Source of the DNA: Schizochytrium sp. TIO01
Taxonomy: Eukaryota > Protista > Bigyra: Labyrinthulomycetes
NCBI GenBank assembly: GCA_004764695.1
Contig: SMSO01000033.1
Span: 2,542,001 to 2,606,000, forward strand
Direction of reading: 5' to 3'
Length of the DNA: 64,000 nucleotides
In this document: positions 7,634 to 51,802 of the stretch, in pieces
Layout of the letters: each line of letters starts with the position of its first letter
How positions within the stretch are numbered: the first letter of the stretch is position 1
The notes under the pieces: generated by a model
Told to the model about the DNA's origin: nothing
What the model saw: only the letters and a program-made list of their open reading frames with translations
The model's database searches: none
Position numbers and translations under genes: made by a program

Positions 7634-9403
7634 TCAAGGAAGAGTCTTGCGACGCCGGGAAGGGCTCTTACGGGTCCGAGGGCGGTTGACCACAGCCGTA
7701 ACAATGTCAGCAACAGCGGCAGAACCAATGATATTTTCGGCTGCACTCTTAATGCCCTCATAGTCAGTGATCTGCTGCTCTGTGCCAACGAGCGTCATTG
7801 GATCAGGGTGCTCCATGTCATGCAGGATAAGAGCGTCTTCATCCTCTGACTCGGAAATTGTCAATAGAAAGAGTCCGAGTGAGACGATGACACAGGAAAG
7901 AACTTTAATGCGCAAATTACTGATAGCAGATTCACGACCGACGCCAAAAATCTTGAGTGCTCCTAGAGCAAACAAAAGGTTGAGACCCTGAGAAAGGGAG
8001 GCCTCGGCTGCGTGCACGATACTCGCTTGGTAATACCAGCTGTACGCAAACTGACTCAAATAGTAGCCAAAGAGCGTGAGAACCTGACCAAGACTTGAAA
8101 AGAAGATCACACGGCGCGGGATATTCTGCAAGTCGATAAAGCGCTGGCGTAAATTTGGGACAGTGCCATACACAAGGCAAAATACTACTGCGAATCCGCA
8201 CCATGCAATGAAAAAGAACTCGAACTCGAGGTCAGCCGGGAGGATGCCACGGAACTTTTCTTTTTTAGCTGAGCTCTTAAGACTGTAAGACATGACCAAG
8301 TCATAAATTCCGACAGCGAATTCGGAGATGATAATGTTACGCACGTAGGACTGCTTCCAGAAGGAGAGACGCAACATACGCTTCATATCACCATCAAGTG
8401 AAGGGAGAATGCCACCAACGACGATGATAATGTAGCAGAGAAAATCAAAAGGACGGATAAAAGTAGATCCAGTCAACGCAGCTGGTACTGCAGAGCCGAC
8501 CAACATCCATGTACTACTCACTTGAATGAGAGGATTGATAACTGTACTGGGGGCGTTGTCATAGGCCTGCAGGAGGTAAAAGTAGTGGGAGAACATGAGA
8601 ATACCACTAAGGGTCGCGAGCCACCACTCCAAGTCGTCACCGGGCGACCAAATGAATTGAGGTTGAAGATAGCTATGCACAGAGTCGCGCTCCAGTACAT
8701 TTGAGGCCAGATGCGAGGCCTGCTTTGCAAGATGCACGCGCTTGAGCGAAAGCAGGTACATGATGCTACCGGTGGTGATTCCAGCAACGGCACAATCCTG
8801 GATACCATCGAGGTGCTCCTCCTCGTCCTCATCGTCTTCCTTTCCATTGTTGTGAGACTTGTCGTCGATTTCTAAATCTTCATCCTTCTTAATCATCATG
8901 CTTGACTCGGAAGGATCGACGCCGATGTCTATGCTTCCAGTGCGACCCTTTCTGTTTTTCAGGTCTAATGACTCGGAAGAGGAGCTTGGCTTAATCATGC
9001 CGCTGCTATCGCCAGAAGAGATCATATCGCTGCTGGAGTTTTCAAGGTCTCCGACCTTGAATTTTTGAGAGGAATTCCTGTTACGGGCCGAATTGAGCAC
9101 ATTGTCTCCATTTCGCATGCGAAGATTGGTGTCGTTGGTTGTTTCCATGGATTGCGAGTTAGTGCGACGTTTGATGCTAGCCTCGCTTTGAGATGCGAGA
9201 GCAGGGAGATTATCTGCGGAGGACTTATTAGTCATTTTCTCCGCAGATGTCCCGATTGGCACCATTTCGAAGCCAAACTCATCGTCATCGTCTTCCTCTC
9301 CGATACACATATCACAGAAGATATCAGCAACGGCCCAACACAAAGCTGCGCCAAGCGTGGCAATCAGCCACTTGTTCTCATCGTACCACTTAGATTCGTC
9401 CAT
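7634..9403 (-). CDS. Multi-pass drug/metabolite transporter (DMT/EamA-like) with a large acidic/Ser-rich loop, about 589 aa
   Basis: About 10 hydrophobic segments and EamA-like motifs (AALCWAVADIF; YFYLLQAYDNAPSTVINPLIQVS). The first ATG is at 9403; the ORF track extends to a non-ATG start at 9427. Confidence 0.72.
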   Translation of the reverse strand: MDESKWYDENKWLIATLGAALCWAVADIFCDMCIGEEDDDDEFGFEMVPIGTSAEKMTNKSSADNLPALASQSEASIKRRTNSQSMETTNDTNLRMRNGDNVLNSARNRNSSQKFKVGDLENSSSDMISSGDSSGMIKPSSSSESLDLKNRKGRTGSIDIGVDPSESSMMIKKDEDLEIDDKSHNNGKEDDEDEEEHLDGIQDCAVAGITTGSIMYLLSLKRVHLAKQASHLASNVLERDSVHSYLQPQFIWSPGDDLEWWLATLSGILMFSHYFYLLQAYDNAPSTVINPLIQVSSTWMLVGSAVPAALTGSTFIRPFDFLCYIIIVVGGILPSLDGDMKRMLRLSFWKQSYVRNIIISEFAVGIYDLVMSYSLKSSAKKEKFRGILPADLEFEFFFIAWCGFAVVFCLVYGTVPNLRQRFIDLQNIPRRVIFFSSLGQVLTLFGYYLSQFAYSWYYQASIVHAAEASLSQGLNLLFALGALKIFGVGRESAISNLRIKVLSCVIVSLGLFLLTISESEDEDALILHDMEHPDPMTLVGTEQQITDYEGIKSAAENIIGSAAVADIVTAVVNRPRTRKSPSRRRKTLP

Positions 9404-10502
9404 CTTGGCCGCTCGCCAAATAAACAAAGGCCGCGTAAATCAGATGTGGTTCACGAAAAAGCTACGCAAACGCGCAATTCAAATAGCAAAACAATCTTCG
9501 AGGAGAAGATGAAGCTCAATGTCAGCTCTGCAGCTTTACCCTGCAAGTATCCTCGGCACCAAACCGTCTTTGCAATATTTATCACCGCACAGAATTCTGG
9601 TTCTCAGGTTTCTCTCCTGAGCTTGCTGTCCGCTGCAGCGTTCTGCACAGCCAACCAAGGTCAATTCAACCCAATATTAAGATCAACGTCAAGGTCACGG
9701 TCACGAAGACAGACCCCTTGCGCGAGGTGGGCGTTGAAGAGATGCAATAGGCAGAGGTAACGCAATAGATGAAGTCGATCGCGGTGCTGGATCCGTACGC
9801 ACCGCACAGGGGCCTCGAGAGCAAGACCAAAGAGTCCCACGGCGCAAAAATGATCGCAGCCGCACACCCGCTCGGCACGCGGCCGGCGAGCAAGATGGAC
9901 GACTGAGTCTGCTGTCGAGGCGGCCCGCGGAGTCGGCGGCGCTGCGGCTCTCGACTCTTTGTTTATTTATATATAACTTTACAAATTTCATTAATTAACT
10001 TATTAACTCATTCATTCATTCATTCACTCATTACTTTGTTCATTACTTTATTCATTTATTACTTTATCATACCATATCATATCATATCATATTCATTTAC
10101 TTTTGCTTTTACCTTTAAGAAGTTCCTTCTTTCTCGTCCTTTTATTGTTCGTTTGCTCCTAGGACCCCTTACCCTTCAACTAGCGGATCCACAATCTGTT
10201 AACTTATTTGGTTTCTTCTTTCTTTCTTTCTTTCTTTCTTTCTCTTCACTTCTTCAAGTCATTCTTTCATCGGCCGAGCATATCTTCTTCAGTAAGCAGG
10301 GGCTCCATTACAGGCCACACAGCCTCCTTCCCAGCCTTTGTCTGCATTGCTTGTTTGTTTGTTTATTTGTCTCTTGCCAAGAGACATTGATTTCCCCGGT
10401 TTTCACAGGATGAAGTTGACATTTTAACAGCCGTGGCGTCTTCGAATCAAATCGCCTTTCGACCTTTTCTGTTCTTTTCACAAATTATCTTCGTCAAAAT
10501 CT

Positions 10503-21542: not shown

Positions 21543-21821
21543 GGTCTCAAGAGCGGTTGCTTATTATACGAGTCTGCCTTCTCAGATCTTGAACCAAAGT
21601 TTCCACAGCCACGTTATTAGTCAATATGGCGGTTCAAAACCGAGTTCTCAAAGAACGTGGAGAGCAAAACCAAAACTGCAGCGAGACAAACGAAGAACGA
21701 TCGACCCTTGGAGGACAAGACGTCACGATCGCAGAAGGCGCCTAGACTTGAGCAAACATCTTCTTTATGAATACGTAGTCCAGTGTGAGTACGGAGGTGA
21801 GATTCTTTGGGAGTGTCGAAA
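21543..21821. promoter_or_regulatory. Probable compact bidirectional promoter
   Basis: Only 279 bp separate the divergent start codons of the TrmH-family and Tag genes. Inferred from layout; no specific motif identified. Confidence 0.5.
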
Positions 21822-22877
21822 ATGATGCGCATGGGAAGAGAACTTCGGTCGAAACGGAGCACCGTGGCGGCGGGGACAAGGATGGTCGCGAGAGGAACGT
21901 CGACAAAGAGACAGAAATGCTCACCTGAAGAACTCCAAGACGACTCGAGCGAAGAAGCGAGAATGAAAGTTCAAAATGACCAAGACTCGGATTCCGGTTC
22001 CGTGGAGCAAAGCTTCGGACGGAACGATGCCAAAAATACCGACAGTGGAGGCGCAACCAAGGTAACAAAGGGGCGTAGAAAATCAGTGAAGAAGCCAAGT
22101 TCGATCGAGGTTGACGAAGAAACTCAGAAGCATGCTAAGAAGTTGAAAAGCGTATCCAAGAAGCCCCAAGAGGCCAGCACTGGAAACACGAAGCCAAAGG
22201 CTTCATCGAAAGAAAGCAAGATGAAGAACAAAGGCATGGCATCTCCAAACTCAGAGACACCAAAAGATGATGGTCGTGAACGATGCGGATGGTGCAACTC
22301 AACCCAACTGTACCAGGACTATCATGATTTGGAGTGGGGTATTCCTGTGCGCTTAAAACAAGGGCTGGAAAATGACTTAGCCCATAAAACAAGTATTGAC
22401 AATAAGCTCTTTGAAATGCTTTGCCTCGAAGGTGCCCAAGCTGGACTTTCCTGGTACACAGTATTGGTGAAACGCGAACGATATCGGGAGCTGTTTGAGA
22501 ATTTTGAGATAGATAAGGTTGCAGCCTTCGAGCCGTCTAAGATCGAGGCTATGTTGAATGACGCTGGTATTATTCGTCACCGCGGGAAACTTCAGAGTGT
22601 TGTAAGCAACGCCAAATTAACTCAAGAAGTCCAAAAAACTCATGGGTCTCTCAGCACTTATCTTTGGCAATTTGCCCCGGAAGATCCTTTCTCCAATCCC
22701 GACATTCGTCAGTCTTTCACCCCAGAGGCAAAGTCAATGAGCAACGCACTCAAGAAGAAAGGATTTAAGTTTGTGGGGCCTACAATCTGTCATGCTTTCA
22801 TGCAGGCTGTTGGCATGTTCAACGACCATGCCCCAACCTGCTTTAGATACAAAGTTGATCGTAATACTGAAAAATAA
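21822..22877 (+). CDS. DNA-3-methyladenine glycosylase I (Tag family) with a basic, disordered N-terminal extension, about 351 aa
   Basis: Motifs RCGW, YQDYHDLEWG, LFEMLCLEGAQAGLSW, GFKFVGPTICHAFMQAVG and NDH...C (Zn ligands). Confidence 0.93.
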   Translation: MMRMGRELRSKRSTVAAGTRMVARGTSTKRQKCSPEELQDDSSEEARMKVQNDQDSDSGSVEQSFGRNDAKNTDSGGATKVTKGRRKSVKKPSSIEVDEETQKHAKKLKSVSKKPQEASTGNTKPKASSKESKMKNKGMASPNSETPKDDGRERCGWCNSTQLYQDYHDLEWGIPVRLKQGLENDLAHKTSIDNKLFEMLCLEGAQAGLSWYTVLVKRERYRELFENFEIDKVAAFEPSKIEAMLNDAGIIRHRGKLQSVVSNAKLTQEVQKTHGSLSTYLWQFAPEDPFSNPDIRQSFTPEAKSMSNALKKKGFKFVGPTICHAFMQAVGMFNDHAPTCFRYKVDRNTEK

Positions 22878-33247: not shown

Positions 33248-36200
33248 CTACTCTAGCTCAAATTCAGCCCCAACAATATCTGGAGTTAGCAACGGCTCGA
33301 GTTTAGCTCTCAGAACGCTTGGAAGACTTCTGCCTTGTATATTTTCGCTCCAGTACATACGCAGACGCTCCGCACGAACCACTCGCCACGCCTCATGCAC
33401 TTGCTCTGGAGAGTCAGGATAATATAAGTCGACACTACGTCTTCTGCTGCATTTTCTTATATGAGTGTAGCAAGCTTGCTTGTTCTTGGAGCTGTATTCA
33501 AGACACCAAGCACAAAACCGATGCCCGCAGCTACCATTGCCACAGATCACAGCAGAGCATCCCTCAAATTCGTCAAAGCGAGCCTTACAATTTGGACAGC
33601 TCGTAATCAAGAGTTTTTCTTTCATGTGCTGCAAATGCATCTTTGCTTCTAAGCTCAGCCCGCCTTCTTCAAGAATCACTGCCATGCGCTTTTCAATCTC
33701 CTCTTCGACCCGAACTAAAGCATCGCTTTCCGCTTTCATCTGCGCGATCCGCAAAAGGTGTCTCAGAGCCCTTGGCGCAAGGCGCGCAATATCTTGGCCC
33801 ATGATTCTTCCATCGCATTTATCCTCCACGCATTTCATCGTTCCATCGGCACCCACAGTCACAGAGGCTTCTGGGTCCGTAGCAGCTTCTACTGAGCTTG
33901 CGATACAGTCTCGGCAAAGGAAATGTTCTCTCTCGCAGCACGTGCCCTCGGAAAGCGGGATGTCATCCAAGCATACAGGACACCTTACTAAAGGGTCTGC
34001 GGCAACCCCGAATGCCTCAAGCGCTTCAACGGCACTTGGACGATGCTCAGGATTTATCGCTTTGAGAGAGTTTATGAGCGACTGTATTGCAGATGTTCGC
34101 TCACGGGGATATAGCTTCTCTAGGACTACACCCACAGAGTACATATCCATTGCAGTTTCGAACCTGTCTACGGGCCCAGTCTGCAATTCAGGAGCAAGGT
34201 ACTGTGCCGTCGCCTGAAGAGATGTGTATGTTGCTGTGGAATCCGCTACTTTCATACCATCGAAATCCCCAAGCAGTGGGGTCTCGATACTCGTGAGGAA
34301 GATGTTCTCTGGCTTGATGTCGCAGTGTACGATGTTCAGAGCATGCATGTCAGCCACCCCAATGAGTAAGCCTGAGGCAAGTCGATTCCGCGTAGCATTG
34401 TCTGCGTTGGGGTGTTTTTTAATCCATTCTGCCAAGTTGCCTTGCTCGTAGAAGGGCATCACGATGCATCCGCGTGGTACTCCATGTACTTTACTAACAA
34501 AGACACCGATAATGCGGATTATATGTCGCGAAGCGACCTTGCCTAGATTCGCAGCTTGCATGTAGAAAGCCCTAATTTGACTCGGATGCCCGAGTTGAAA
34601 CTGCTTTAGAACGAGAGTTTTGCCAGCGCTATCTAGCACCTTCTGTACCGTCTTGCCACTCCTCGTAACCAGAAGCTCTCCAACAGGCTGGAAATCCGAA
34701 ATTTCTATGTTTGCTAGCCAGAGATCAGAGCAAGCCACCTCAAGGACACCATCTGCACTTACATGTACCTTTTCGAGCCATGCTTGGTCTTTCAGTAGTT
34801 CTGGGTAATGCTCCTGCGCGTGTTGCAGAGTTTCGGCAAGTTTATGACGAAATGTTTTGCTCAGCTCGATAGGGGTACCTTCAGAGAGAATAAGCTCTTG
34901 TTTTTTTATTCGACGCTCGAAGTACGCTTTATCTTCTTCCTCCAGGTTCTTCCCCTCGAGGTCTCTTTTGGCTCTCTTGATAATTTCCGTCGCATCTCGC
35001 GACCTGGCAAGTTTCTCGTATAGCTCTATAACACAAGAGACATTGGTTTCTTTCGAACTCAAAAGCACATAGTCGTATAACTCCGCAATGTCCTCCGGTG
35101 AAAGAATGATAGGTTCATCTACCTTGAAGTCTTGGGTTGACTTCTCCAAACCATCAAATACTGAGCTGATAGCGCATAGTACCTCTGTCACTGTGCCACG
35201 AAACGTATCCCCTTTCAGGTCCTCAAGCTCTTCCTGCAGAGCATTTTGAAGTTCAGAAAGCTCAGGCTTCAGTTTTGTGGACTTTTCAGGCTCCCTCATA
35301 GCAACCCTGAATGCGTCACCAAGTCCCAACTCACTCACTCGCAAAATGACTTTTTCCACCGCTTCTTCGCTTCGTTGATTAACGTTACTCTGATAACTAC
35401 TTTGGCTCGCCTTGTACTCTTTGACGCACTTGTCAGCCCGACCAAGCAACTCCTGGCAGTCTTTGAAGTCAGCCGCGCATGCACGTCCATCCAATGCTGC
35501 GCCACTTATGCTCAGACCCTGCAACAAACTGGCAAGCCTTTCCTTAAAGCCACGAACTTGAACCTCATTGCTTTCGTAGAACCCAGTCCGAACCCAAGGG
35601 TGCACATTTTGCACGAGTGAACGCAAGCGCGCTCTTTCATCGTTTCGCTCCGCAATGAGCTGAGATAAACCAGCCGGAGAGCTTTCACGAATCCGGGCTT
35701 GGCAAGATTCTAAACGGTCTTTGGAGTTCGTGATGTCACTAGAAGTCTGTTTCAACTTCAATTGAACAAAGTGGCCTTGAATGACTGGGCCTGCGAACTC
35801 CTCAAACAGTGCAATCGCGGTCTGCAGGGAGTCTTCTCTAGCCACACCACGGCCTGCCCGCGTGTGCGAGACCTCCTTGGCGAGCTGCACCACGTCAGCA
35901 AAGCTCACCCCACCCATGTCCGGTGGTTCTCTGAGGTATGGTTGGCGAAACGCAGTAACAGCAGATGCTCAAGTCAGGATTCCATTCGATAGATGCTTCA
36001 ACACAGCTCGTGCACCAGACATTTATTTCAATCACGACGGAGAGACTCAATGCCCCTACCATCAAAGAATCAAACTTACATAGCATCTTCTGAGCCCCTG
36101 GCCTCTGCACAAGGTTCGTTCGCCTCATCAATGCAGACACAGGAATCAGGGTCCGGGGCTGCAATATCCTCTCCAGGAGTACACACCTTTGCAAACAATT

Positions 36201-39200
36201 CTTCGGGGGTTATGAAGTCTCCAAACTCACACCTGTGTCAAGTCAATCGAATGTTCAATACGAGGTCTCGTGAGAACAACAATTCGTGAATTTCAAGACA
36301 GCCTTGCAGCTCCAGGACCGACATTGATGACACAGCCTAGGCAAACCTGACAGCTAGCTGCGAGCGACGACGGAACTTACCAGGTTTTCACAGAAGGGCA
36401 TGTTTTGTGCAGAGATTTAGCAATTGCCTTGGCGCCGTCGATGCCGATGTGATTGTGTTGGAGACTGTGTGGTCACCAATAAGCGATTGTAATGTCGCGA
36501 CATGTCAGTTCAGTGCGTTTGATTCTCGACGATATTGAGCCACAGCCATATACTGCACCACTCTCCTTTCCTTGTGTTCGATCTTGGGATTTGGCAAAAG
36601 GCCGCTTCGGTTGTTGCTCTTTACCATCGGTTCACCCATTTATTCCCTGCATTCCTTATGTCCGTAATCATTCAGGGCTCTTTCATTGACTGTTTTCTTT
36701 CTCGCTCTCTATTTCCTTTTTTATTTTTTTCCTCTCTCTCTCTCCAGTTTCGAATCTCAGCGCGCAGCTCTCTTTTTGCCCTCTTTCTGCTCTACAAACG
36801 TACGACAATCGAGTGAGGTTTTTGCATCCCTTCAGTGCTTTGGCGACTGCCTTTGCGCCCTCATCGCCAATGTTGTTCTGTGAAAGACTGTGTACGAGTA
36901 TTTTTCATTCGTTGTGCAATACAATTATTACGCGTCAGTCACTTGAGTGTTTCCAATACTCCAAACAAGCGCTCCCCCGCCACCACAGGAACCCAAACAG
37001 CGTTCTCAACGTCATGTTCTTTCTGTCTGTGCTGTATTTCCGTAATTCTTCTCTCCTCATTCAATGAAACGTTGCGCATTCTATTCACATGATAACTCAT
37101 CACCGTTGCTATCTTTTGCTCTGTTCCCGAAAGCGCTTCTTCAAGTTCTATCGCCCAATCTTGAACTTCATGTCCTCAATTCTCTGTCTTTGCAAGGTGA
37201 CTTTCCCGTTTTATCACCTTCACAACTCAGCGCAGCGCAAGTTTTCGATTCTACGAACGTACTACAATTCTGTCAGCTTCTCGCACCCCTCAAGAGCGTT
37301 GGCGACTGCCTTTGCGCCCTCAGAGCCAATGTTGTTCTCTGAAAGACTGTGTACGAGTATTTTCCATTCGTTGTGCAATACAATTATTACGCGTCAGTCA
37401 ATCAGTTAATCAGTCAGTGAGATCGTGAACTGCTTTCATGTCTGCGTCTCAAGTTCTTCTGCGAAGCAATACTTCTGCAACTTCACAACACTGATTCTCT
37501 ACATTCGCATTCTCTGCTCTGTCTGTTTTTGCATCATTCGTCCTCAGCATTCAAAATCCTACTCATCGCTTTTGACAGTTCTTTTTGAGTTTGTTTTCAC
37601 ATCGTTTCTTCTGTTCTTTCTTTCTTTCCAAACAAAGGAACTCTTCTGCAACACATATGATTTTCTCTCTTTGGTCTCTCTTCTTTCGTTCCGAGTCGAC
37701 CATTTCTCTTCTTTTTCTATTTCTTTTTCCTTTTCGCATCTCAAAGGCTGAAATGAAATACGAAACAGCAGACTTTTCCAAACGTACCCCAATGTAGCGA
37801 GGTCTTTGCATCCCTTCAGTGCTTTGGCGACTGCCTTTGCGCCCTCAGAGCCAATGTTGTTCTGTGAAAGACTGTGTACGAGTATTTTCCATTCGTTGTG
37901 CAATACAATCAATCTTACTCAGTCAATCGCTGTCCATCTGAATGCCTTCTTTCTTCTCGTGTCTTCAGAGAACTAAGAATGTCTCTCTCAGCGCCATTCT
38001 TCGTTGTCTCTGCAATATTCATCCGCACTTTCAAATTCACCACTTTCGTGGGAGTGTGATTTCTCAATTTATTTCTTTCCCCAAATAATCGTATTTTGCT
38101 TATTCTTCCTTGCAACTTTAATCTTTGAAAGAGTGTTCTTGAAAGATCATACGTGTTTGCTCTTTCTTTTGTGCGTCTCTTTTCTTACGTTCTCCCATTC
38201 TCTCTTTCCGAACCAAAACGCATCGATAGTATGATGGTACCATAACTACTGCGCAGTGGAGATTCAACACGCTCATAAAACATACCTCAATGTGGTGAGA
38301 TTATCACGACCTTTCAGTGCGTTTGCGACGGCCTTTATGCCCTCTTCGCCAACGTTGTTCCCCCAAAGCCTGTCATTGGTTGTTAGAAGAGAGTATTTTC
38401 AAAGTTAGTAAAAAGCTGCATTACTTCTCAAGTGTTCTTTTAACATCACAACTCCAATTGCAGAACTCTCTCTCTTTCTCTCTTTTCGCTGTGAGGAATC
38501 GTCGTTCTGAAGAGCCTTCCTTCTCTCGATGAGTACCAACATGTAAGCAATAAGTATATTGCTTCTGTACACTTTATTGTTGTTCTGTAAACTTTTACTC
38601 CGATTACACCTTCCTTTTTTTTATATTATTATTATTTTTTCATGCTTTTCAATTTAAAAATAAAACAAACAATTGGTACTGTTCTTTTCCGCTTTGAAAC
38701 AAGGCCCCATCACTACTAACTGCCAAGGTGGGTGGGTAATCTTTCAAACAGCTATTGTATAAACTTATATATCAATCAAACGTACCTCAAGTCAGTGAGA
38801 CTCTTGCATCCCTCCAGAGAGATTGCGATGGCCTTTGCGCCCTCTGTGCCGATTTTGTTGTTAAAGAGGCTGGTTTGTGCAACACAACAAATACGAGTCA
38901 GTCAGTCAACTGCTTTCATGTCTGCTTTCATCAAGTTCTTCTGCGAAGCAATACTCCTACAACTTCACAACACTGATTCTCTACATTTGCGTTCTCTGCT
39001 CTGTCTGTTTTCCTTCAGCATTCAAGTTCTATTCAATGTTTTTTACTTCTTCTTGAGTTTGATTCGTATCATTTGTTCGGTTCATTCTTTCATTCTTTCC
39101 AAAGGAAGGAACTCTTCTGCAACAAATACTTTCTCTCTTTGTGGCCCCTCTTATTTCTTTCCGAGTCGATCATTTAAAAAAAATTTTAGCATTCCAAAGG

Positions 39201-39498
39201 CTGAAATGAAGCACCGAATAGAGACTTTTCAAAACTTACTTCAATCTAGTGAGGTTCTTGCATCCCTTGAGTGCATCTGCGAGGGCCTGAGCCTGCACAG
39301 CGCATATGCTCTCGCAAGCCAGCCTATGTTTGTTGGAGATCAAGGTATGCGATTCTCAGTTCATTAGTTCTAAATCTTAGCTTTAAAATAAATTGCTCAA
39401 AGGCCATGCCTCGATCTTCTACCCCTCTCTCCAGCATGCACTTACCAGACCTCCGTCGTACCATTGGTGATTTCCCCAATACTCCGTGCAGTCGTCAT
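33248..39498 (-). CDS. LRR (7x RNI-like) / helical region / non-RD Ser/Thr protein kinase / RBR-like RING E3 ligase fusion, 1158 aa, 10 exons
   Basis: Exons 39498-39446, 39323-39240, 38869-38786, 38369-38286, 37871-37788, 37346-37263, 36887-36804, 36464-36381, 36232-36080, 35930-33248. All introns are GT-AG and phase 2; the total is 3477 nt with no internal stop. Kinase motifs VLKQ, HCDIKPEN, DFDG, YLAPE, DMYSVG; RING1 CPVC..C..EHFLCRDC..C....C; Rcat-like CPNC..FEGCSAVIC..CGHRFCAWC. Confidence 0.88.
36381..39323 (-). repeat. Array of seven 84-nt exons, each encoding one 28-aa leucine-rich repeat, spaced about 420-525 bp apart
   Basis: Exon translations: LACESICAVQAQALADALKGCKNLTRL, LFNNKIGTEGAKAIAISLEGCKSLTDL, LWGNNVGEEGIKAVANALKGRDNLTTL, LSQNNIGSEGAKAVAKALKGCKDLATL, LSENNIGSEGAKAVANALEGCEKLTEL, LSQNNIGDEGAKAVAKALKGCKNLTRL, LQHNHIGIDGAKAIAKSLHKTCPSVKT. 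Each is bounded by YAG and GTA(A/C/T)G. Confidence 0.93.
37425..39239. repeat. Dispersed duplicated intron block (about 37425-37787 and about 38905-39239)
   Basis: Shared colinear segments aactgctttcatgtctgc, caagttcttctgcgaagcaatact, caacttcacaacactgattctctacatt, aaggaactcttctgcaaca, ttccgagtcga, aaaggctgaaatgaa and gacttttc. Confidence 0.9.
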
Positions 39499-40388: not shown

Positions 40389-42480
40389 CTAAAACCTCAG
40401 CGAAAACAGCAAGGCCACAATGCTGGCAATGAGCCCTTCTTGAGATACTTCTATTCTTGGATAGTTTTCATAATCTCTTTCTCTGACCTGCAGGGTTCGT
40501 TGTTGAGCTTTTAGAAAGCCCCTTCCGTCGCTGGTCTTCTTCGCGACCTTTGAATCCCCCTTTTGAACGTGCAACATTTCTAAGCTCCCAGCGTACAGGA
40601 ACACCGTGGCATCACTTCTGACTCGTCCTGTAAAACCAGTAGTTTCAAGGGTTTTTCCAGTCTTTGCTATTTGAAAAGAAGATGCACAATCAGAGGAATA
40701 TTTGATGAGCCAAAGAGCTTGGTCAAAGTATTCTTGGTCATAGTGCTTGCAGATACTTTAAGACTCAGCGAAGCATGTATGTTGAAAGTCCAGCACCTGA
40801 ATACGGAAGTTTTCCTTGGCTATAAATATGAAGGGTTGGTGTAGAGTAGAACTCCGGCAGAGACGATAATTCAAAGGCTGAAACGTACGGTACTTTATAT
40901 TTCTACCCAGTGCGATCTAGTGAATTTTAAAAAGCATCTAGAACAAGCCTGTGTAGAGCCCCATTTGAATTTGTATGGAGGTCTCCAAAGAGTCCTTTCG
41001 AACCAAAACGTATATTTGGGACTGAGTGGATCGCTGGTACATCCATGAGTCCTGTAATCGAAGAGTCCGCTCAGAACCTGAAGAAAATGCGGTGTCAGAG
41101 CCATCACTTTCTACCACGAGAAAAAGATTTGACGGTTTCAAATTTGGCTCGCGTGTTGCCATCCTGGTTTGTTCCCAACCAAAGAACCTGACGCCTATTC
41201 TTTCCTTAGGGTCCTGCATTAATTTTGTCCAGAGGCTGCTTAGCATTGATTCGGGTCCATCCTGGCAAAAGACTTTAAAGATTTGAATCCTTTGCGACAT
41301 TAATTCTCCATCGGCTCGGGACCCGACGTCTTCAGTCAGATCAACTACAGTCCCGTGGGGGAATTCAAAAGTATCATTAACGGGGGTACACCTTGCACTG
41401 TAGCTTATTGTCTCCTGTATCAGCGGGCGCGTCCCATGCGTGATACTGCATTGTGAAGGAGATTTCTGACATCGAGAAAACCATCATAGCCGTTTGAATT
41501 GTTAAAGTGCTCAAAGTTTTATACCTTGGTAGATGAATCAATTGGAATATCACAAGCTGCTTGCGGGAAGACCCTTTCGCTCTGTGTCTCAAAGGCTTGT
41601 TGTTTCGCTTGTGCAATAACAACCTGCCGTTTTCTTGATTTCGACGAGACTAAGCAGCACATTTTATACCCTTTGCATGGATGGTATTGTGAAGAATGGC
41701 AGCCTTCCCATCTCACATATTCCATCTCAGAAATCAGACTATATGTGGAGGAACACAGAGCCTCTATCTGGAGAGTTGTGTTATAGGAAGTGTCATAGAC
41801 TTCATGGGTATGTACACGTATATGATCGTGTAGTTTGTGATTGTAAGCATCTGGTTACGAAGTATCATATATGGAATAAGAACTCATTTTCTATTAATTC
41901 TTTCATTTAAAAAGTGGTGAGTATTCATGACTTTCGGTGTTTTGTCAAGCCCATGCATGCATTTGGGAATGGAGTCCGCAACCGTGGCGAGATGATGATA
42001 GCCTACCTGTGAGGTTTCAATAGCAGGATGTATAAATCTCTTCAGATCAAACTTACGTTTGACTCCATCATGGTATAGTCAATTTGGGCTAGATGATGAG
42101 TTTCTTGCGAGAATCTACTATGCCTGACACGCAGAGCATCAAAGAGGATAAGAATTTGCAAATATAATTTCTCAATTTCAAATAAAACCTGTATCTGAAA
42201 AGAAACAGCAGAATTGCCTCTTTCATTTTTTAAAATCATGTAAGACCCTGTGCTTATGTTGTTTTGCAAGTCTAAGAACTCTTCTTAGCAACAAATCAAT
42301 GTACTTAAGATCTACCAGCATCAAAATTTCAAACGTTGACTGAATCACAAGCAAATGGACAAGGTCAAAACAGCTTTATAAAGCTTGAGAGAAGAGCAGT
42401 TAAAGTTCTTATTTAAGCAAGCGCAGAATGACGCCTCCTTCTGACTTTTTGTTTCCACTTCAATCGCATTGTTCATCCAA
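40389..42480 (-). pseudogene. Probable decayed gene, possibly a type II membrane/secretory enzyme
   Basis: Chain of same-strand protein-like ORF fragments (42042-42269, 41519-41725, 41377-41622, 40938-41300, 40895-41107, 40389-40604) broken by stops and frameshifts, with a hydrophobic segment near the 5' end. Family not identified. Confidence 0.3.
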
Positions 42481-47399: not shown

Positions 47400-50300
47400 T
47401 TACTGTGCAGCTTTGAATTCTTTCCAGCGCTCAGCAAGAATACCCATGACTTTGCTTTTATCATTAACCTCATCAAGGACGGTTTTATAGTTGTCTTTTA
47501 CAAACTGTTGGTACGCGTTAAGCTTCTTCTTTTCGATCTTGTTGCCATTCTCATCAAACTGACCAACAAAAACAAGGCTGCTCCTGCTCTTACACCGGCT
47601 GCAGCACATGCTGTTGACATCAATAGATTTGCTGTGTCGAGTCCATGTTGCTTTGCAGCCAGTGCATTCATAACGAAAGGGTGCGTGGACTTTGTAGTTA
47701 TGGCATGTCGTAACGGGGTAGCGTGGATACACTTGAGTTGCACGCTCGGCCCACTTTACAAACGCTGGGCCGTGTGGAGGTTTCTGTACACCATCAACCA
47801 ACCATGCAGCAGCATGACAAAGTTCGTGTAAAAGTGTCGTGTTGAGGCGCTCTCCATTCGTTATAACCTTGCTCGAAAGTTCGATACGCGCAGAGCGGGT
47901 ACGATCTGATGAGCATTTCATGAAACAAAACCCAGCAGACGATGTCATGCGTGCATTCCACGTGATTTTAAGGTCATATGGGATTTCGCCCCCAAATACT
48001 GTATCGTTGAACTCGGCTAAGAGATCACGAGCAAGCTTTTCCCTGTTCGATTTTGTCACTTTAATGGAGTCCTTGACAGAGGTCCCATTCTGACGCTCCT
48101 TTGAGGTCTTCGAGGCCTTGATTTTGGCAATAGATTTTTCAGCATCGCTCATGTCGCTGAAATCATCGTCGTGGTCGTTCTCACAAAACTCGACACCACT
48201 ACTGCTTTTTGATGATGATGCAACTGACAAAATTTCAACGTCGCTATCGGCATCGGCATCCTCGTCATCCTCATCTTCGTCATCCTCATCTTCGTCGCTG
48301 CTACCTTCGTCGACATAATCCTCATCCTCGTCCTCTTCCTCTGAAAGGTCCTCGTCAGAAGCAATGAAAGAGTCTTCAAGATCATACTCATTTTCACTTT
48401 CTTCGTCTTCATCATCCTCATCAGAGCTTTCAACACGACGAGAAGATCTGATATTTCGTTTTGGCGCCTTACCTTTAGGCATTAGGGGTGTTGATGTTTG
48501 AATACTAAAATTGGACTTTGAAAGTTCGTTCTCATCATTCTCATCATCATCGTCTTCTTCAAAATAGTCGTCATCTTCATCTTCATCAGAAGAAGATAAG
48601 AAGACAACCTTCTGAGGACCTTTACGGGTCGACTTACGAGGAGGAGGTAATGGACTATTTTCATCAAACTCCTCATCAAACTCCTTTGCTGCGGTCGCTT
48701 TATAGGATTTGGGTGGCGGAGTTGATTCGACACGGGGAAGAGGGGTTGATTCGCTCATTGCTAAAGGGGAAGACGATAGATCATAAACAAGCTCCTTTGC
48801 TGCTGTAGCTTTGTAGGATTTGGGTGGCGGGGTGTATTCGCAGGGGGGCAGAGGTGTTGATTCACCAATTGACAAAGGGCTAGTGGGTGGAGTCAAGCGG
48901 AGCGGTGTAGAGGCGGGGACCCTTGTGTGTTCTTTTCCTAGAAAGTCATTGCTTTCAAGTTGCTCGTCCTCATCTTCTTCGTTATTTGTGTGTAAAACAC
49001 GACTCGCGTTTTGGCTCATTTCACGGGATGCCCCGGCAGCGGCCACAGCAGTATTTCTCCTTGGTCGTCGACGAAGTTGTGTTGCGCTTCTTACAGGTGC
49101 AAAAAGAGGACTTTCTTCCTCTTCCTTTTTGTTGCCTGCTTGAATTCTTGTACTAGTAGCTTTCTTCTTTGGAGATGGCGTGTAAATACTATCCTCGTCA
49201 GATTCTCCATCATTCGCGTAGTCCCCATCATCTTGGTCACTTTGCTCATCTTCAAAATCACCATCCGCGTCATCTTGATCAAGATCTATACTACGCGCAC
49301 TACTTGTTGGGGGCAAGACTGCTGTACGTTCTGTGAAGGTTTCATCATTGTCAGAGCTGCTACTGTCGCTAATTGTCGTTGTACCTTTAAGCCCCGCTCC
49401 AGCGCTTTTACTATCCTGTAAATCATCTTCTACATCAGATTCATCGGTTTCACTCAAAGTGCACAAACCCTTTTGTGTTGGGGGCGGTGCCCTTTGTGGC
49501 GGTGTTTGGTTCTCTCCTTGACCTTTAAGGGGAAGGGCAGAGCCTCCTGCACTATTGGTTGCTTTGCTGAAAATGGGTTTCGCTGGACTTGGTGACAGTT
49601 CTCTGTCTTGGATGGAGCTTGCCGTAGACTTGGTTGGGCTCGGTGACATTCCTCTGTCTTGAATGAAGCTTGTAGTAGACTTGGCTGGGCTCGGTGACAA
49701 TTCTCTGCCTTGGATGGAGCTTGCCGTAGACTTGGCTGGGCTCGGTGACATTCCTCCGTCTTGAATGGGGCTTGCCGTAAACTTGGCTGGGCTTGGTGAC
49801 ATTCCCCTATCTTGAGCCAGACTTGGTGCGGCCTTAGGTATGGTTGAAGAGGAGATACGACGTGTTGGTGTTGAATTATCGTTCAAATTGACACAGTTAT
49901 TGAATTTATCGACGAGGTTTTGCTCAAGGAAGCCAGAATCCCGCTCGAAATCGCCTTGTAAGACATCAACGTCTTCCTCTGAAGACAAGGACTGCCGCGC
50001 TGAGACGAATGAGTCTGTATGAATTGGCGAAGAGTCTCCAGCATTGCGTTCATTGAATTGCTGGAAAGGACTTGCACCGAACTGTCTCAAGGCAGCTGGA
50101 GAATCTGCTGAGAAATCTAAGTTTAATCCGTTTCGCAGTGCTTCACACAGATTATCGGTCAAACTGTGATTTGTGTTCTCTTGTTCAATCTTAACTTTTT
50201 TGTCCGATGCTGGCATATCACTTGCCGGCAGGGTAGACGGGTTTCCAATTTTCGGCGACCTTTCTGCAGAATCATCATAGTCCCTAGCAAACGAGCCGTT

Positions 50301-50933
50301 TGTCAAGGAGTCACCATCTGGACTTGCCATTACTTCTGCTGCACGGCGCAAAATAACACTTGCAGGGGTACTTTCCTCGCTCGTTGGCGACTTAATCGTA
50401 TTGATTGGTGTCAAAGTAGAACCAAAGTAAGGGTCGTCGTCTTGCGATGTGCTTCCCCGTTGATCTTTGTGTTGGCCTAATAGCGATGGTGTAGAGCCTG
50501 ATGAGCTATTTGACAATGACGATGATGTTGATGAGGGTACCAAAGGACGCCTTATACGAGCTGGTGTTGTAGGATCATACTTGGTGGAGATATCCGAGAA
50601 CCCTGATTCATAGCCATCGCAATGTCTTGAGTCTAATGATTTCTTTGCCATTGTTCTGCTTTTCTGCCAGTAGGAGAATATTCCTTTTGAGACGCTGTCT
50701 TCGTAGCGTACCACAAAACTGCAGGTTTCTTCTTTTCTGGAGCTGTTTACGTTCTCGACTGGGCGGTGGTATCGAGGGCTGTTTCCACGGTCGAGTCTTT
50801 TGAGGGACGTCGGCAAAGGAATTGGCGTCTCCGGGAGGAACCGGGCCGCTGATTTCGTAGCGAGGTGTCTCCAAAGCTGACCTGCGACCACACAACGATG
50901 CGTCCTGGCACCGCGCTGCGCCCCCAGCAACAT
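47400..50933 (-). CDS. GCNA: GCNA/ACRC-like SprT metalloprotease (long acidic disordered region, SprT, Zn finger, C-terminal HMG-like box)
   Basis: FNDTVF..ITWNARMTSSAG..IELSSKV..RLNTTLLHELCHAAAWL..PHGPAF..W; TCHNY; C..C....RHSKSI..C..C; LNAYQQFVKDNY..VMGILAERWK. Start uncertain (ATG 50933 or 50651). Confidence 0.87.
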   Translation of the reverse strand: MLLGAQRGARTHRCVVAGQLWRHLATKSAARFLPETPIPLPTSLKRLDRGNSPRYHRPVENVNSSRKEETCSFVVRYEDSVSKGIFSYWQKSRTMAKKSLDSRHCDGYESGFSDISTKYDPTTPARIRRPLVPSSTSSSLSNSSSGSTPSLLGQHKDQRGSTSQDDDPYFGSTLTPINTIKSPTSEESTPASVILRRAAEVMASPDGDSLTNGSFARDYDDSAERSPKIGNPSTLPASDMPASDKKVKIEQENTNHSLTDNLCEALRNGLNLDFSADSPAALRQFGASPFQQFNERNAGDSSPIHTDSFVSARQSLSSEEDVDVLQGDFERDSGFLEQNLVDKFNNCVNLNDNSTPTRRISSSTIPKAAPSLAQDRGMSPSPAKFTASPIQDGGMSPSPAKSTASSIQGRELSPSPAKSTTSFIQDRGMSPSPTKSTASSIQDRELSPSPAKPIFSKATNSAGGSALPLKGQGENQTPPQRAPPPTQKGLCTLSETDESDVEDDLQDSKSAGAGLKGTTTISDSSSSDNDETFTERTAVLPPTSSARSIDLDQDDADGDFEDEQSDQDDGDYANDGESDEDSIYTPSPKKKATSTRIQAGNKKEEEESPLFAPVRSATQLRRRPRRNTAVAAAGASREMSQNASRVLHTNNEEDEDEQLESNDFLGKEHTRVPASTPLRLTPPTSPLSIGESTPLPPCEYTPPPKSYKATAAKELVYDLSSSPLAMSESTPLPRVESTPPPKSYKATAAKEFDEEFDENSPLPPPRKSTRKGPQKVVFLSSSDEDEDDDYFEEDDDDENDENELSKSNFSIQTSTPLMPKGKAPKRNIRSSRRVESSDEDDEDEESENEYDLEDSFIASDEDLSEEEDEDEDYVDEGSSDEDEDDEDEDDEDADADSDVEILSVASSSKSSSGVEFCENDHDDDFSDMSDAEKSIAKIKASKTSKERQNGTSVKDSIKVTKSNREKLARDLLAEFNDTVFGGEIPYDLKITWNARMTSSAGFCFMKCSSDRTRSARIELSSKVITNGERLNTTLLHELCHAAAWLVDGVQKPPHGPAFVKWAERATQVYPRYPVTTCHNYKVHAPFRYECTGCKATWTRHSKSIDVNSMCCSRCKSRSSLVFVGQFDENGNKIEKKKLNAYQQFVKDNYKTVLDEVNDKSKVMGILAERWKEFKAAQ
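48681..48881 (-). repeat. In-frame duplication with a 111-bp period within the GCNA-like gene
   Basis: SPLSIGESTPLPPCEYTPPPKSYKATAAKE and SPLAMSESTPLPRVESTPPPKSYKATAAKE. Confidence 0.88.
49578..49814 (-). repeat. In-frame 51-bp (17-aa) coding minisatellite, about 4.6 copies
   Basis: QDRGMSPSPAKFTASPI / QDGGMSPSPAKSTASSI / QGRELSPSPAKSTTSFI / QDRGMSPSPTKSTASSI / QDRELSPSPAK. Confidence 0.92.
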
Positions 50934-51802
50934 GCACTGCGCCGCTTTCGTTCGCGCGGCCAAGGGTTTCGATCTGTTGCGTCTCTTCAGTCGAAGTCCA
51001 AAACATCAGAAAACGAACGAACGAATGAAAAGAAATCAAATCAAATCAAACTAATAACCATATAACACCATCCTAATAAAAATACTAATCACTTTTACTT
51101 TTTTATTTCATATAGAAGTCATAACAGTCATACAATTAATAATCAGAGAAACGAGAGCGCTTTCGCGGCAGTTGCGCATTTTGCAGTCCGGTAATAACCG
51201 CACTGTGGGTTTATATGTTACAAAATACTAATATGTCTTGTATAGATATTAAGAGAAAACGATCAAGAGCAGCACCATCTCGTGAAGGTTTCTTGTGGTG
51301 AATGAGAGCGTGAATATCAATACAACATCAGTAAGTGATTAATTGATGTATTTGTTCCTACCACGTCGTAATGGGCCAAGAAATGAGAGCGTCATAAGTC
51401 GCTTGAGAGCGGTATCAGGGTCTGTTTCATAGAAGTAGTAAATGCAAAGGTTAGAGTGTTTATGATCCAATTACCTGGCTTGGAATGGAATGACCGGAGG
51501 AAGATAATCGAAACGAAATACATTTTGCGTCGGCGAGGGCAGGTAACTAACTCCCTTTCAATGATCTGTGCTGATTCATAATTTTTATGGCTTGGCCCAC
51601 CGTGTGTTGAAGAGGACATAACTTCAGTTATCTATACTGAGCTGCCTGATTAAAGCAGGGTAACCCTGTGCTCTTGAGACACAGGGCAGTTGGAGGGTAG
51701 CAGCAGAACGTAAGCTGGAGTTTATGCTACTGCAAGGAAAGGAAACAAAGTGATGAAACAAGATTTCGATTAAAGGGAAAAGGTCACAGGGGGTTTAGTT
51801 GA

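Follow-up and report, generated by a model that had tools for sequence, protein, structure and literature searches.

A ten-exon gene read from the minus strand of a 64,000-nucleotide stretch of the genome of Schizochytrium sp. TIO01, a member of the Labyrinthulomycetes (GenBank assembly GCA_004764695.1, contig SMSO01000033.1, positions 2,542,001 to 2,606,000 of the forward strand), encodes an array of seven leucine-rich repeats (LRRs), one per exon, followed by a protein kinase domain and a pair of zinc fingers resembling those of ubiquitin ligases. The whole stretch is referred to as the window, and all positions are given in its own numbering. The gene product is probably a cytosolic sensor, whose LRRs likely owe their diversity to recombination and gene conversion between exon-intron units, together with selection on the strand face, and whose predicted output combines a non-RD kinase with an RBR-like ligase devoid of the IBR domain. 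An earlier inspection of the letters alone, hereafter the original prediction, had pointed to seven symmetric phase-2 exons of 84 nt and proposed that alternative splicing or shuffling of the DNA would yield combinatorial as well as junctional diversity. Reshuffling at the DNA level has been traced, whereas the junctional diversity that splicing can create turned out to be minor and alternative splicing itself was not shown.

The frame of the gene comprises 1158 codons with one terminal stop, and all nine introns are GT-AG introns in phase 2. Exon 1 (39446..39498), with a stop in frame three codons 5' of its ATG, contributes the start codon, 17 codons and 2 nt, which code for the first half-strand of repeat 1. 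Exons 2 (39240..39323), 3 (38786..38869), 4 (38286..38369), 5 (37788..37871), 6 (37263..37346), 7 (36804..36887) and 8 (36381..36464) all consist of 84 nt, each with AG before and GT after and in phase 2; the borders, lengths and phase put forward in the original prediction were rechecked and all agree. Seven consecutive exons of equal length, a multiple of three, in the same phase and in register, each holding one repeat, are not due to chance. The repeat follows the 28-residue LxxLxLxxN pattern with a helix that defines the RI-type LRR, exon 3 being a canonical example (LRR_6, E 0.00067). Since exon 2 codes for a degenerate first LRR without the ladder Asn, and exon 8 for a capping repeat whose register is off by one residue, only exons 3 to 7 are canonical interchangeable units. 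Exon 9 (36080..36232), of 153 nt and in phase 2 on both sides, codes for an acidic linker, and exon 10 (33248..35930), of 2683 nt, for a helical region, the kinase, RING1, further helices, an Rcat-like finger and the stop. The introns separating the LRR exons measure 339-441 nt, with 34-40% A on the sense strand, and introns 1, 8 and 9 measure 122-149 nt; the 5' splice sites are all GTAAG, GTACG or GTATG. Nine introns are not the local norm, because many neighbour genes are single long frames, and no further LRR exon, orphan or inverted exons included, occurs in the window. The gene is flanked by a fucosyltransferase on one side and by Rab3GAP on the other.

The codon split by each intron is the x between the strand leucines, as originally claimed, and lies at the same place as the exon borders of other RI-type LRRs (PMC6642158). 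The donor dinucleotides TG, AA, AG, AG, GG, TA (the end of exon 6) and TC and the resulting residues W, N, R, S, G, Y and S were recovered as predicted, together with the absence of stops in all 21 forward skips among exons 1 to 8 and the stops arising when exon 6 is joined to exon 9 or 10, or exon 1 or 8 to exon 10. The broader claim of in-frame swapping stood for these forward skips but not for every order, since 2 of the 49 joins among exons 2 to 8 give TAG, namely those leading from exon 6 back to exon 2 or exon 4; exon 6 is the sole donor among exons 2 to 8 that makes a stop with exons starting with G. Altogether, 112 of the 128 subsets of exons 2 to 8 are free of stops. This freedom needs no special design, because five of the seven 84-nt exons begin with C or T and codons ending with these letters are never stops. 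For the same reason, a donor exon gives at most two junction residues; the residue is altered in 10 of the 21 forward skips, every one from donors 1 to 3. The junction residue varies mainly because the last bases of the donor exon differ in the DNA. Parts of the stretch occur in 20 of 24 listed public sequencing runs (8 studies), and base 36804, the last base of exon 7, differs in contigs of all four DNA runs, turning the junction Ser into Tyr, while base 38287 differs in contigs of one of them. The idea of a junction residue is already in print for the phase-2 LRR exons of Tetrahymena (PMC6564038), and the exon layout and the junction codon, being known already, add little by themselves.

Traces of rewriting are most apparent in the comparison of the repeat units with each other. 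Intron 2 (38870..39239, 370 nt) and intron 5 (37347..37787, 441 nt) are homologous (79.6% over 289 nt, E 7e-68); the body of intron 5 resembles intron 2, while its last 54 nt are 98% identical to intron 6 and its last 38 nt are common with intron 4, the part shared by introns 4, 5 and 6 being restricted to their last 38-60 nt. Near-identity begins about 38 nt before the exon and lasts until exon base 48 in the pair of units 5 and 6 and until base 67 in that of units 5 and 7, whereas for units 6 and 7 it begins 54 nt before the exon; further out, the introns of units 5, 6 and 7 are unrelated. Such a patchwork would not be left by duplication of whole units alone; to judge from the letters, short conversion tracts covering the acceptor and the helix-coding core would leave it. 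The number of units varies as well: two close paralogs, P0037 and P0293, possess 4 and 10 repeat modules, respectively, against 7 in the window gene, as read from proteins whose exon structure was not seen. The array accordingly displays both recombination traces between units and a repeat number that varies between paralogs, and the identical exon number everywhere that would have spoken against the original prediction does not hold for these close paralogs. Both paralogs share the repeat type, the cap and an exon-9-like linker with the window gene. Their cap and linker run straight into the RING1-Rcat module, without helical region or kinase, so that the kinase block is optional in the family.

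The differences between the units are concentrated on the predicted binding face, the placement of which follows from the repeat register and the published RI-type structure. Exons 5 and 7 are identical at 76 of 84 nt, and their eight differences correspond to 0.5 synonymous and 7.5 non-synonymous changes. Among exons 5 to 7, the non-synonymous proportion (pN) reaches 0.45 at the five xxLxLxx codons against 0.09 elsewhere, with a synonymous proportion (pS) of 0.20 in both; the face pN/pS, calculated from few sites, amounts to 2.3 for exons 5 to 7, 1.4 for exons 3 to 7 and 1.2 for exons 2 to 7. For exon 4, runs X1 (record 5) and X4 (record 22) provide single pieces including both flanking introns which differ in the first face codons, and in X1 also in the acceptor. 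Within the best 40 of 320 rows of variants from the four DNA runs, 14 of the 17 variants in LRR exons fall in the face codons, which make up 15 of the 84 bases. Similarly, in a set of 13 exact 28-residue modules from the window gene, P0037 and P0293, the face positions exhibit a mean entropy of 2.53 bits against 1.04 bits, a value reached by 5 of 98280 five-position sets. The summed contig depth of the exon-7 bin relative to the intron-8 bin, which is not a copy number, amounts to 30, 47, 75 and 107x in the four DNA runs, and this excess is a hint of a large family of similar exons.

The exon borders were also examined in the public runs. The four runs treated as RNA are guessed to be so, none being recorded as RNA and X18 being marked as probably DNA; their joint table covers 15 of 37 joints and derives from short contigs with rare variants dropped. 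The joint of intron 8 is exact (CT..AC) in three of the four. Intron 9 is joined in two, with two other letters between, and a third run has a loose end matching exon 9, whereas intron 7 is bridged in all four with other letters at the exon end. Introns 1, 3 and 4 are also bridged, with other or unknown letters near the joint, and a joint 39308-39449, on the side of exon 1, occurs in two of the four. No such intron joints occur in the four DNA runs, two of which hold contig pieces covering most or all of intron 8. The exon borders are thus real for the gene or for its close paralogs. Among these 15 joints, no clean exon skip was found. The joints between non-adjacent exons have sides of 21-47 nt, and show other junction letters or are marked 'between: not known'; translated by hand, they give, e.g., LQQLYLRRN, LTYLSLGWN and LDLYQN (LRLWGN in the window). 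By their letters they are other exons, in the same frame and with different face residues. One apparent skip, 36876-39252, is also present in two DNA runs (X1 and X11), where this joint of an exon end with an exon start hints at LRR copies that never had, or have lost, the intron. Other candidates were set aside. Joints that go back, such as 37871-37263 in X17, do not require reordered exons, since the first 22 nt of exon 7 are the same as those of exon 5 and a normal joint of exon 6 with exon 7 can map there. The X1 coverage gap at 36898-37159 (intron 6), across which no contig joins, was not counted as a deletion; the joint 36859-38875 of three DNA runs was read not as a deletion but as a variant of an exon-3-like unit that includes 37 other letters; and the joint 36969-37635, from one run with a side of 20, was too weak to be used.

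The large last exon, the content of which the original prediction left aside, is the part that tells the role of the protein. It begins with a helical region of about 365 residues (34808..35902), all-helical in the structural model and without any Pfam family, followed by the protein kinase domain (34109..34657; Pkinase, E 1.1e-25). The catalytic loop of the kinase reads His-Cys-Asp (34327-34319) and is therefore of the non-RD type, like that of 110 of the 125 relatives with a readable loop (153 examined). The enzyme may, judging from its sequence, be a pseudokinase. The last 246 residues are modelled with a pLDDT of 93 as an RBR-type RING1 (33815..33982), two helices and a RING2/Rcat-like zinc finger (33449..33598). 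RING1 matches 1wim (Z 7.3, rmsd 3.0, 85 aligned residues) and ARIH2 (Z 7.2), structural Z values below 8 not being decisive alone, and the best Foldseek match of the RING1-Rcat model is the RBR of RNF216 in a transthiolation complex (E 3.7e-6, TM 0.30). The top Atlas clusters are unnamed eukaryote proteins (0.96 and 0.95), followed by RBR ligases, and the finger itself weakly matches the RING2 of parkin and Ariadne (E 0.05-0.09). A search for folds with the whole exon 10 was filled by kinases, and so was a profile search with A3.

The candidate catalytic Cys of the Rcat-like finger (33559-33557) is retained in 35 of 37 aligned relatives, and the residue located two positions further is Ala in all 37; parkin and HOIP have a His at this position. 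The Rcat pattern occurs in 98 of 155 relatives, 62 of which also possess a RING1 within 200 residues. No IBR lies between the fingers in any of these 62 parsed relatives, where the linkers comprise 51-87 residues with 0-3 Cys; in the model of the window protein, the linker is helical. The tail, with its RING1 and an Rcat bearing a candidate catalytic Cys, is thus RBR-like in the model and yet, for want of the IBR, falls outside the RBR family. Regarding other receptor classes, no Roc-COR tandem was found, Pfam giving only kinase families in exon 10 and the model only helices, kinase and zinc fingers, and neither Pfam nor the model gives a NACHT or NB-ARC NTPase. No strongly hydrophobic stretch or transmembrane helix was detected by hydropathy, no dedicated predictor having been run; the best 19-residue window (1.39) is located at residue 738, not between the LRRs and a cytoplasmic domain. 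The gene product belongs to the one-LRR-per-exon kind and is neither a ROCO protein, nor an NLR, nor a receptor kinase.

The nearest named relative of exon 10 is an LRR-kinase of Hondaea fermentalgiana (37% identity over 69%). A profile search gave 266 representatives at E 1e-30 or better, the best 150 of which were taken, and among 30 proteins looked up, the named members belong to Hondaea, Chromera, Sphaeroforma, Polarella and one record labelled Durusdinium. Of 38 relatives scanned for their front ends, 18 gave none and 20 a recognisable one, namely ankyrin repeats in 12 (one of them also with LRRs), LRRs in 2 more, ubiquitin in 2, and WD40, TPR, MATH and RanBP1 in one each. A tree built from 45 kinase domains places the window gene with four unnamed proteins resembling the last exon (100/100), and an LRR member from Hondaea is the sister of a TPR member from the same organism, on short branches (99/93), a pair which, on the sequence tree, fits a swapping of sensors. 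The Hondaea protein P0033 associates TPR repeats and an E3 ligase domain of NEL type (PF14496, E 1.5e-27) with the same kinase. On the LRR side, a search with P0005 returned generic RI-type and RanGAP-like proteins, and exon 5 with its flanks weakly matched two fish NACHT-LRR proteins among 19 candidates. The solved structure best matching the exon profile is 5irl/5irm (E 9.7e-9), labelled 'uncharacterized', which we take to be rabbit NOD2. Metagenome matches (79 loci) proved to be generic kinases, with 25-47% identity over the kinase only, and were not used as relatives.

Several observations weigh against a sensor diversified under selection. The pN/pS values derive from few and non-independent pairs, and the variants from a best-supported subset of rows skewed towards exon ends. 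Variability at exposed x positions is common to all LRRs, and helix positions 8 and 16 are variable here as well. The contigs are short, do not separate alleles from paralogs, and none of them spans the array. P0037 and P0293 have no kinase at all, and that of the window gene shows to the eye no clear glycine-rich loop or helix-C glutamate and has DFD in place of DFG; the likeness of the whole RING1-Rcat module to RBR structures is modest (TM about 0.3), and the link between non-RD kinases and the recognition of microbes is a correlation from plants and animals. An alternative would be an ordinary turnover of tandem repeats, homogenised by conversion and with exposed sites drifting under relaxed constraint, the protein being then a housekeeping or developmental ligase with LRRs as substrate adaptor. 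Patches of conversion are to be expected in every close tandem repeat, the face pN/pS falls as exons 3 and 4, and then exon 2, are included, the P0004 cluster transcripts show one difference in the LRR region, and the gene, with no other LRR exon around it, is surrounded by neighbours of single-copy housekeeping type (RTC family, importin-beta, SpoU methylase, Rab3GAP). We consider this explanation not very likely, however, since replacements make up nearly all the differences between exons 5 and 7, several variants consist of paired changes within one face codon, one of which as a single change would make a stop, and repeats of several unrelated types stand in front of the tail in a family whose kinases are mostly non-RD.

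Combinatorial alternative splicing as the main generator would produce many LRR surfaces from one gene, a skip joining the first half-strand of one repeat with the second half of another and creating new junction residues. The proportion of stop-free exon subsets and the comparatively long introns separating the LRR exons are in line with it, as are the LRR splice variants annotated for ROCO genes of Ectocarpus (PMC11378527) and demonstrated for NLRP3 (PMC6642158). It is nevertheless quite unlikely, given the lack of a clean skip among the 15 of 37 joints covered, the presence of the joint 36876-39252 in DNA, the limit of two junction residues per donor, the uniformity of the GTAAG, GTACG or GTATG donors, and the lower frequency of exon skipping outside bilaterians, Tetrahymena being the one non-animal with a frame-keeping bias (PMC6142364). 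A reassembly of the LRR exons in the growing clone, of the kind proposed for Ectocarpus, would find an ample pool of like exons if the contig depth is a guide, and the exon-exon form joined in the DNA of two runs, which could also be a copy without introns or a product derived from cDNA, might be one of its outcomes. It is extremely improbable, the window being free of the orphan and inverted LRR exons reported at Ectocarpus loci (PMC3341825).

Among known systems, the LRR-ROCO and type I LRR-kinase genes of brown algae are among the most similar. They also occur in stramenopiles, carry one LRR per phase-2 exon, and vary in repeat number between paralogs and on the concave face, with a proposed role in defence; shuffling of exons and selection on the concave face are described for the brown-algal genes (PMC3341825, PMC11378527). 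They differ, however, by repeats of 72 nt and 24 residues instead of 84 nt and 28 residues of RI type, by an output consisting of Roc-COR or a kinase instead of a non-RD kinase with RING1-Rcat, and by their annotated splice variants with different LRR sets, none of which was seen here among the joints covered. The LRR genes of Tetrahymena resemble the window gene by tandem equal phase-2 exons and a 'junction' amino acid made of 2+1 bases, with unequal crossing over as the proposed motor, but possess exons of 90 bp, numbering tens of thousands, and a linked retrotransposon (PMC6564038); no retroelement was seen in the window, where no search aimed at one was made. NLRP3, NOD1/2, CIITA and RNH1 share 28-residue repeats, a fixed exon border in the β-sheet and frame-keeping skips (PMC6642158), whereas the window protein has no NACHT or other NTPase, carries its LRRs at the N-terminus and shows a face that changes rapidly between copies. 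With RNF216, ARIH1/HHARI, parkin and HOIL-1, the tail has in common an RBR-type RING1 and a RING2/Rcat-like finger in which a Gly-Cys is conserved, but the module of this family has no IBR and follows either a kinase or, without anything between, the LRRs. Finally, XA21, FLS2 and EFR combine an LRR sensor with a kinase having Cys for Arg before the catalytic Asp, plant non-RD receptor kinases being tied to microbe recognition, and employ E3 ligases in the same pathways, where the window gene has a ligase-like module in the same chain (PMC3411088). Unlike them, the window protein is of RI type and without apparent transmembrane helix, the comparison being one of features. No published account of a thraustochytrid family combining LRRs, kinase and an IBR-less tail was found in the literature, subscription journals being mostly outside the search, and LRR, NLR or immune terms are absent from the main text of each of two preprints on thraustochytrid genomes, although their supplements could list such genes. 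What lifts the finding is a recent rewriting, at the DNA level, of the face predicted to bind; no report of it was found for this lineage, nor any description of such a receptor-like architecture.

Elsewhere in the window, the region 40389-41483 (-), upstream of the LRR gene, consists of two open frames (122 and 181 aa) in a stop-rich stretch and is possibly a decayed gene; the 181-aa frame has no Pfam family and an Atlas match below the recognition threshold. The 1201-codon frame at 47400-51005 (-) contains long acidic tracts and two repeats, one of 51 nt in 4.6 tandem copies and one of 111 nt; with a SprT-like domain at its C-terminus, it presumably resembles a GCNA/ACRC-type protein. A methyladenine glycosylase (PF03352, E 7.5e-64), whose family is known above all in bacteria and plants, is encoded at 21801-22877 (+) with a long low-complexity N-terminus. 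The 601-codon frame at 7634-9439 (-) is rich in hydrophobic stretches, matches no Pfam family at E 0.01 and may be a transporter.

According to the reading favoured here, of a cytosolic sensor diversified in its DNA, the repeats most likely form a one-faced binding surface that is renewed between generations by unequal exchange and conversion, a part of the reading which the sequence supports; the uniform phase-2 exons would presumably allow gains, losses and conversions to keep the frame. Because the intron lies in the middle of the variable strand, one half of the strand face would be exchangeable. In-frame exon skipping would be possible, probably as a side effect and not as the main generator. 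A ligand, at a guess a protein of a virus or parasite, would bind to the LRRs and thereby set free the kinase and the ligase, and the Rcat cysteine would then serve for the ubiquitination of the bound target or of a signalling partner. The protein may have a role in defence. In a wider interpretation, which we offer tentatively and regard as somewhat doubtful, such proteins would form an undescribed class of intracellular immune receptors of protists, uniting a swappable, fast-diversifying repeat sensor, made of LRRs in the window gene and of ankyrin, WD40 or TPR repeats in relatives, with a non-RD kinase and an IBR-less RBR-type ligase. In thraustochytrids, the LRR branch would have dozens to hundreds of 84-nt exons at its disposal across the genome and, thanks to the intron in mid-strand, would exchange half-faces by conversion in an arms race, possibly with the persistent large DNA viruses that thraustochytrids carry (PMC12606086; bioRxiv 10.64898/2026.07.28.741200).

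The immunity of protists is little known, and thraustochytrids offer many sequenced strains. The question raised by brown algae, whether it is exchange of DNA, splicing or change within a clone that diversifies arrays of LRR exons, therefore becomes directly testable in these organisms. If the prediction is true, the IBR-less RING1-Rcat module would represent a stripped-down RBR ligase and would provide a useful test of the purpose of the IBR.

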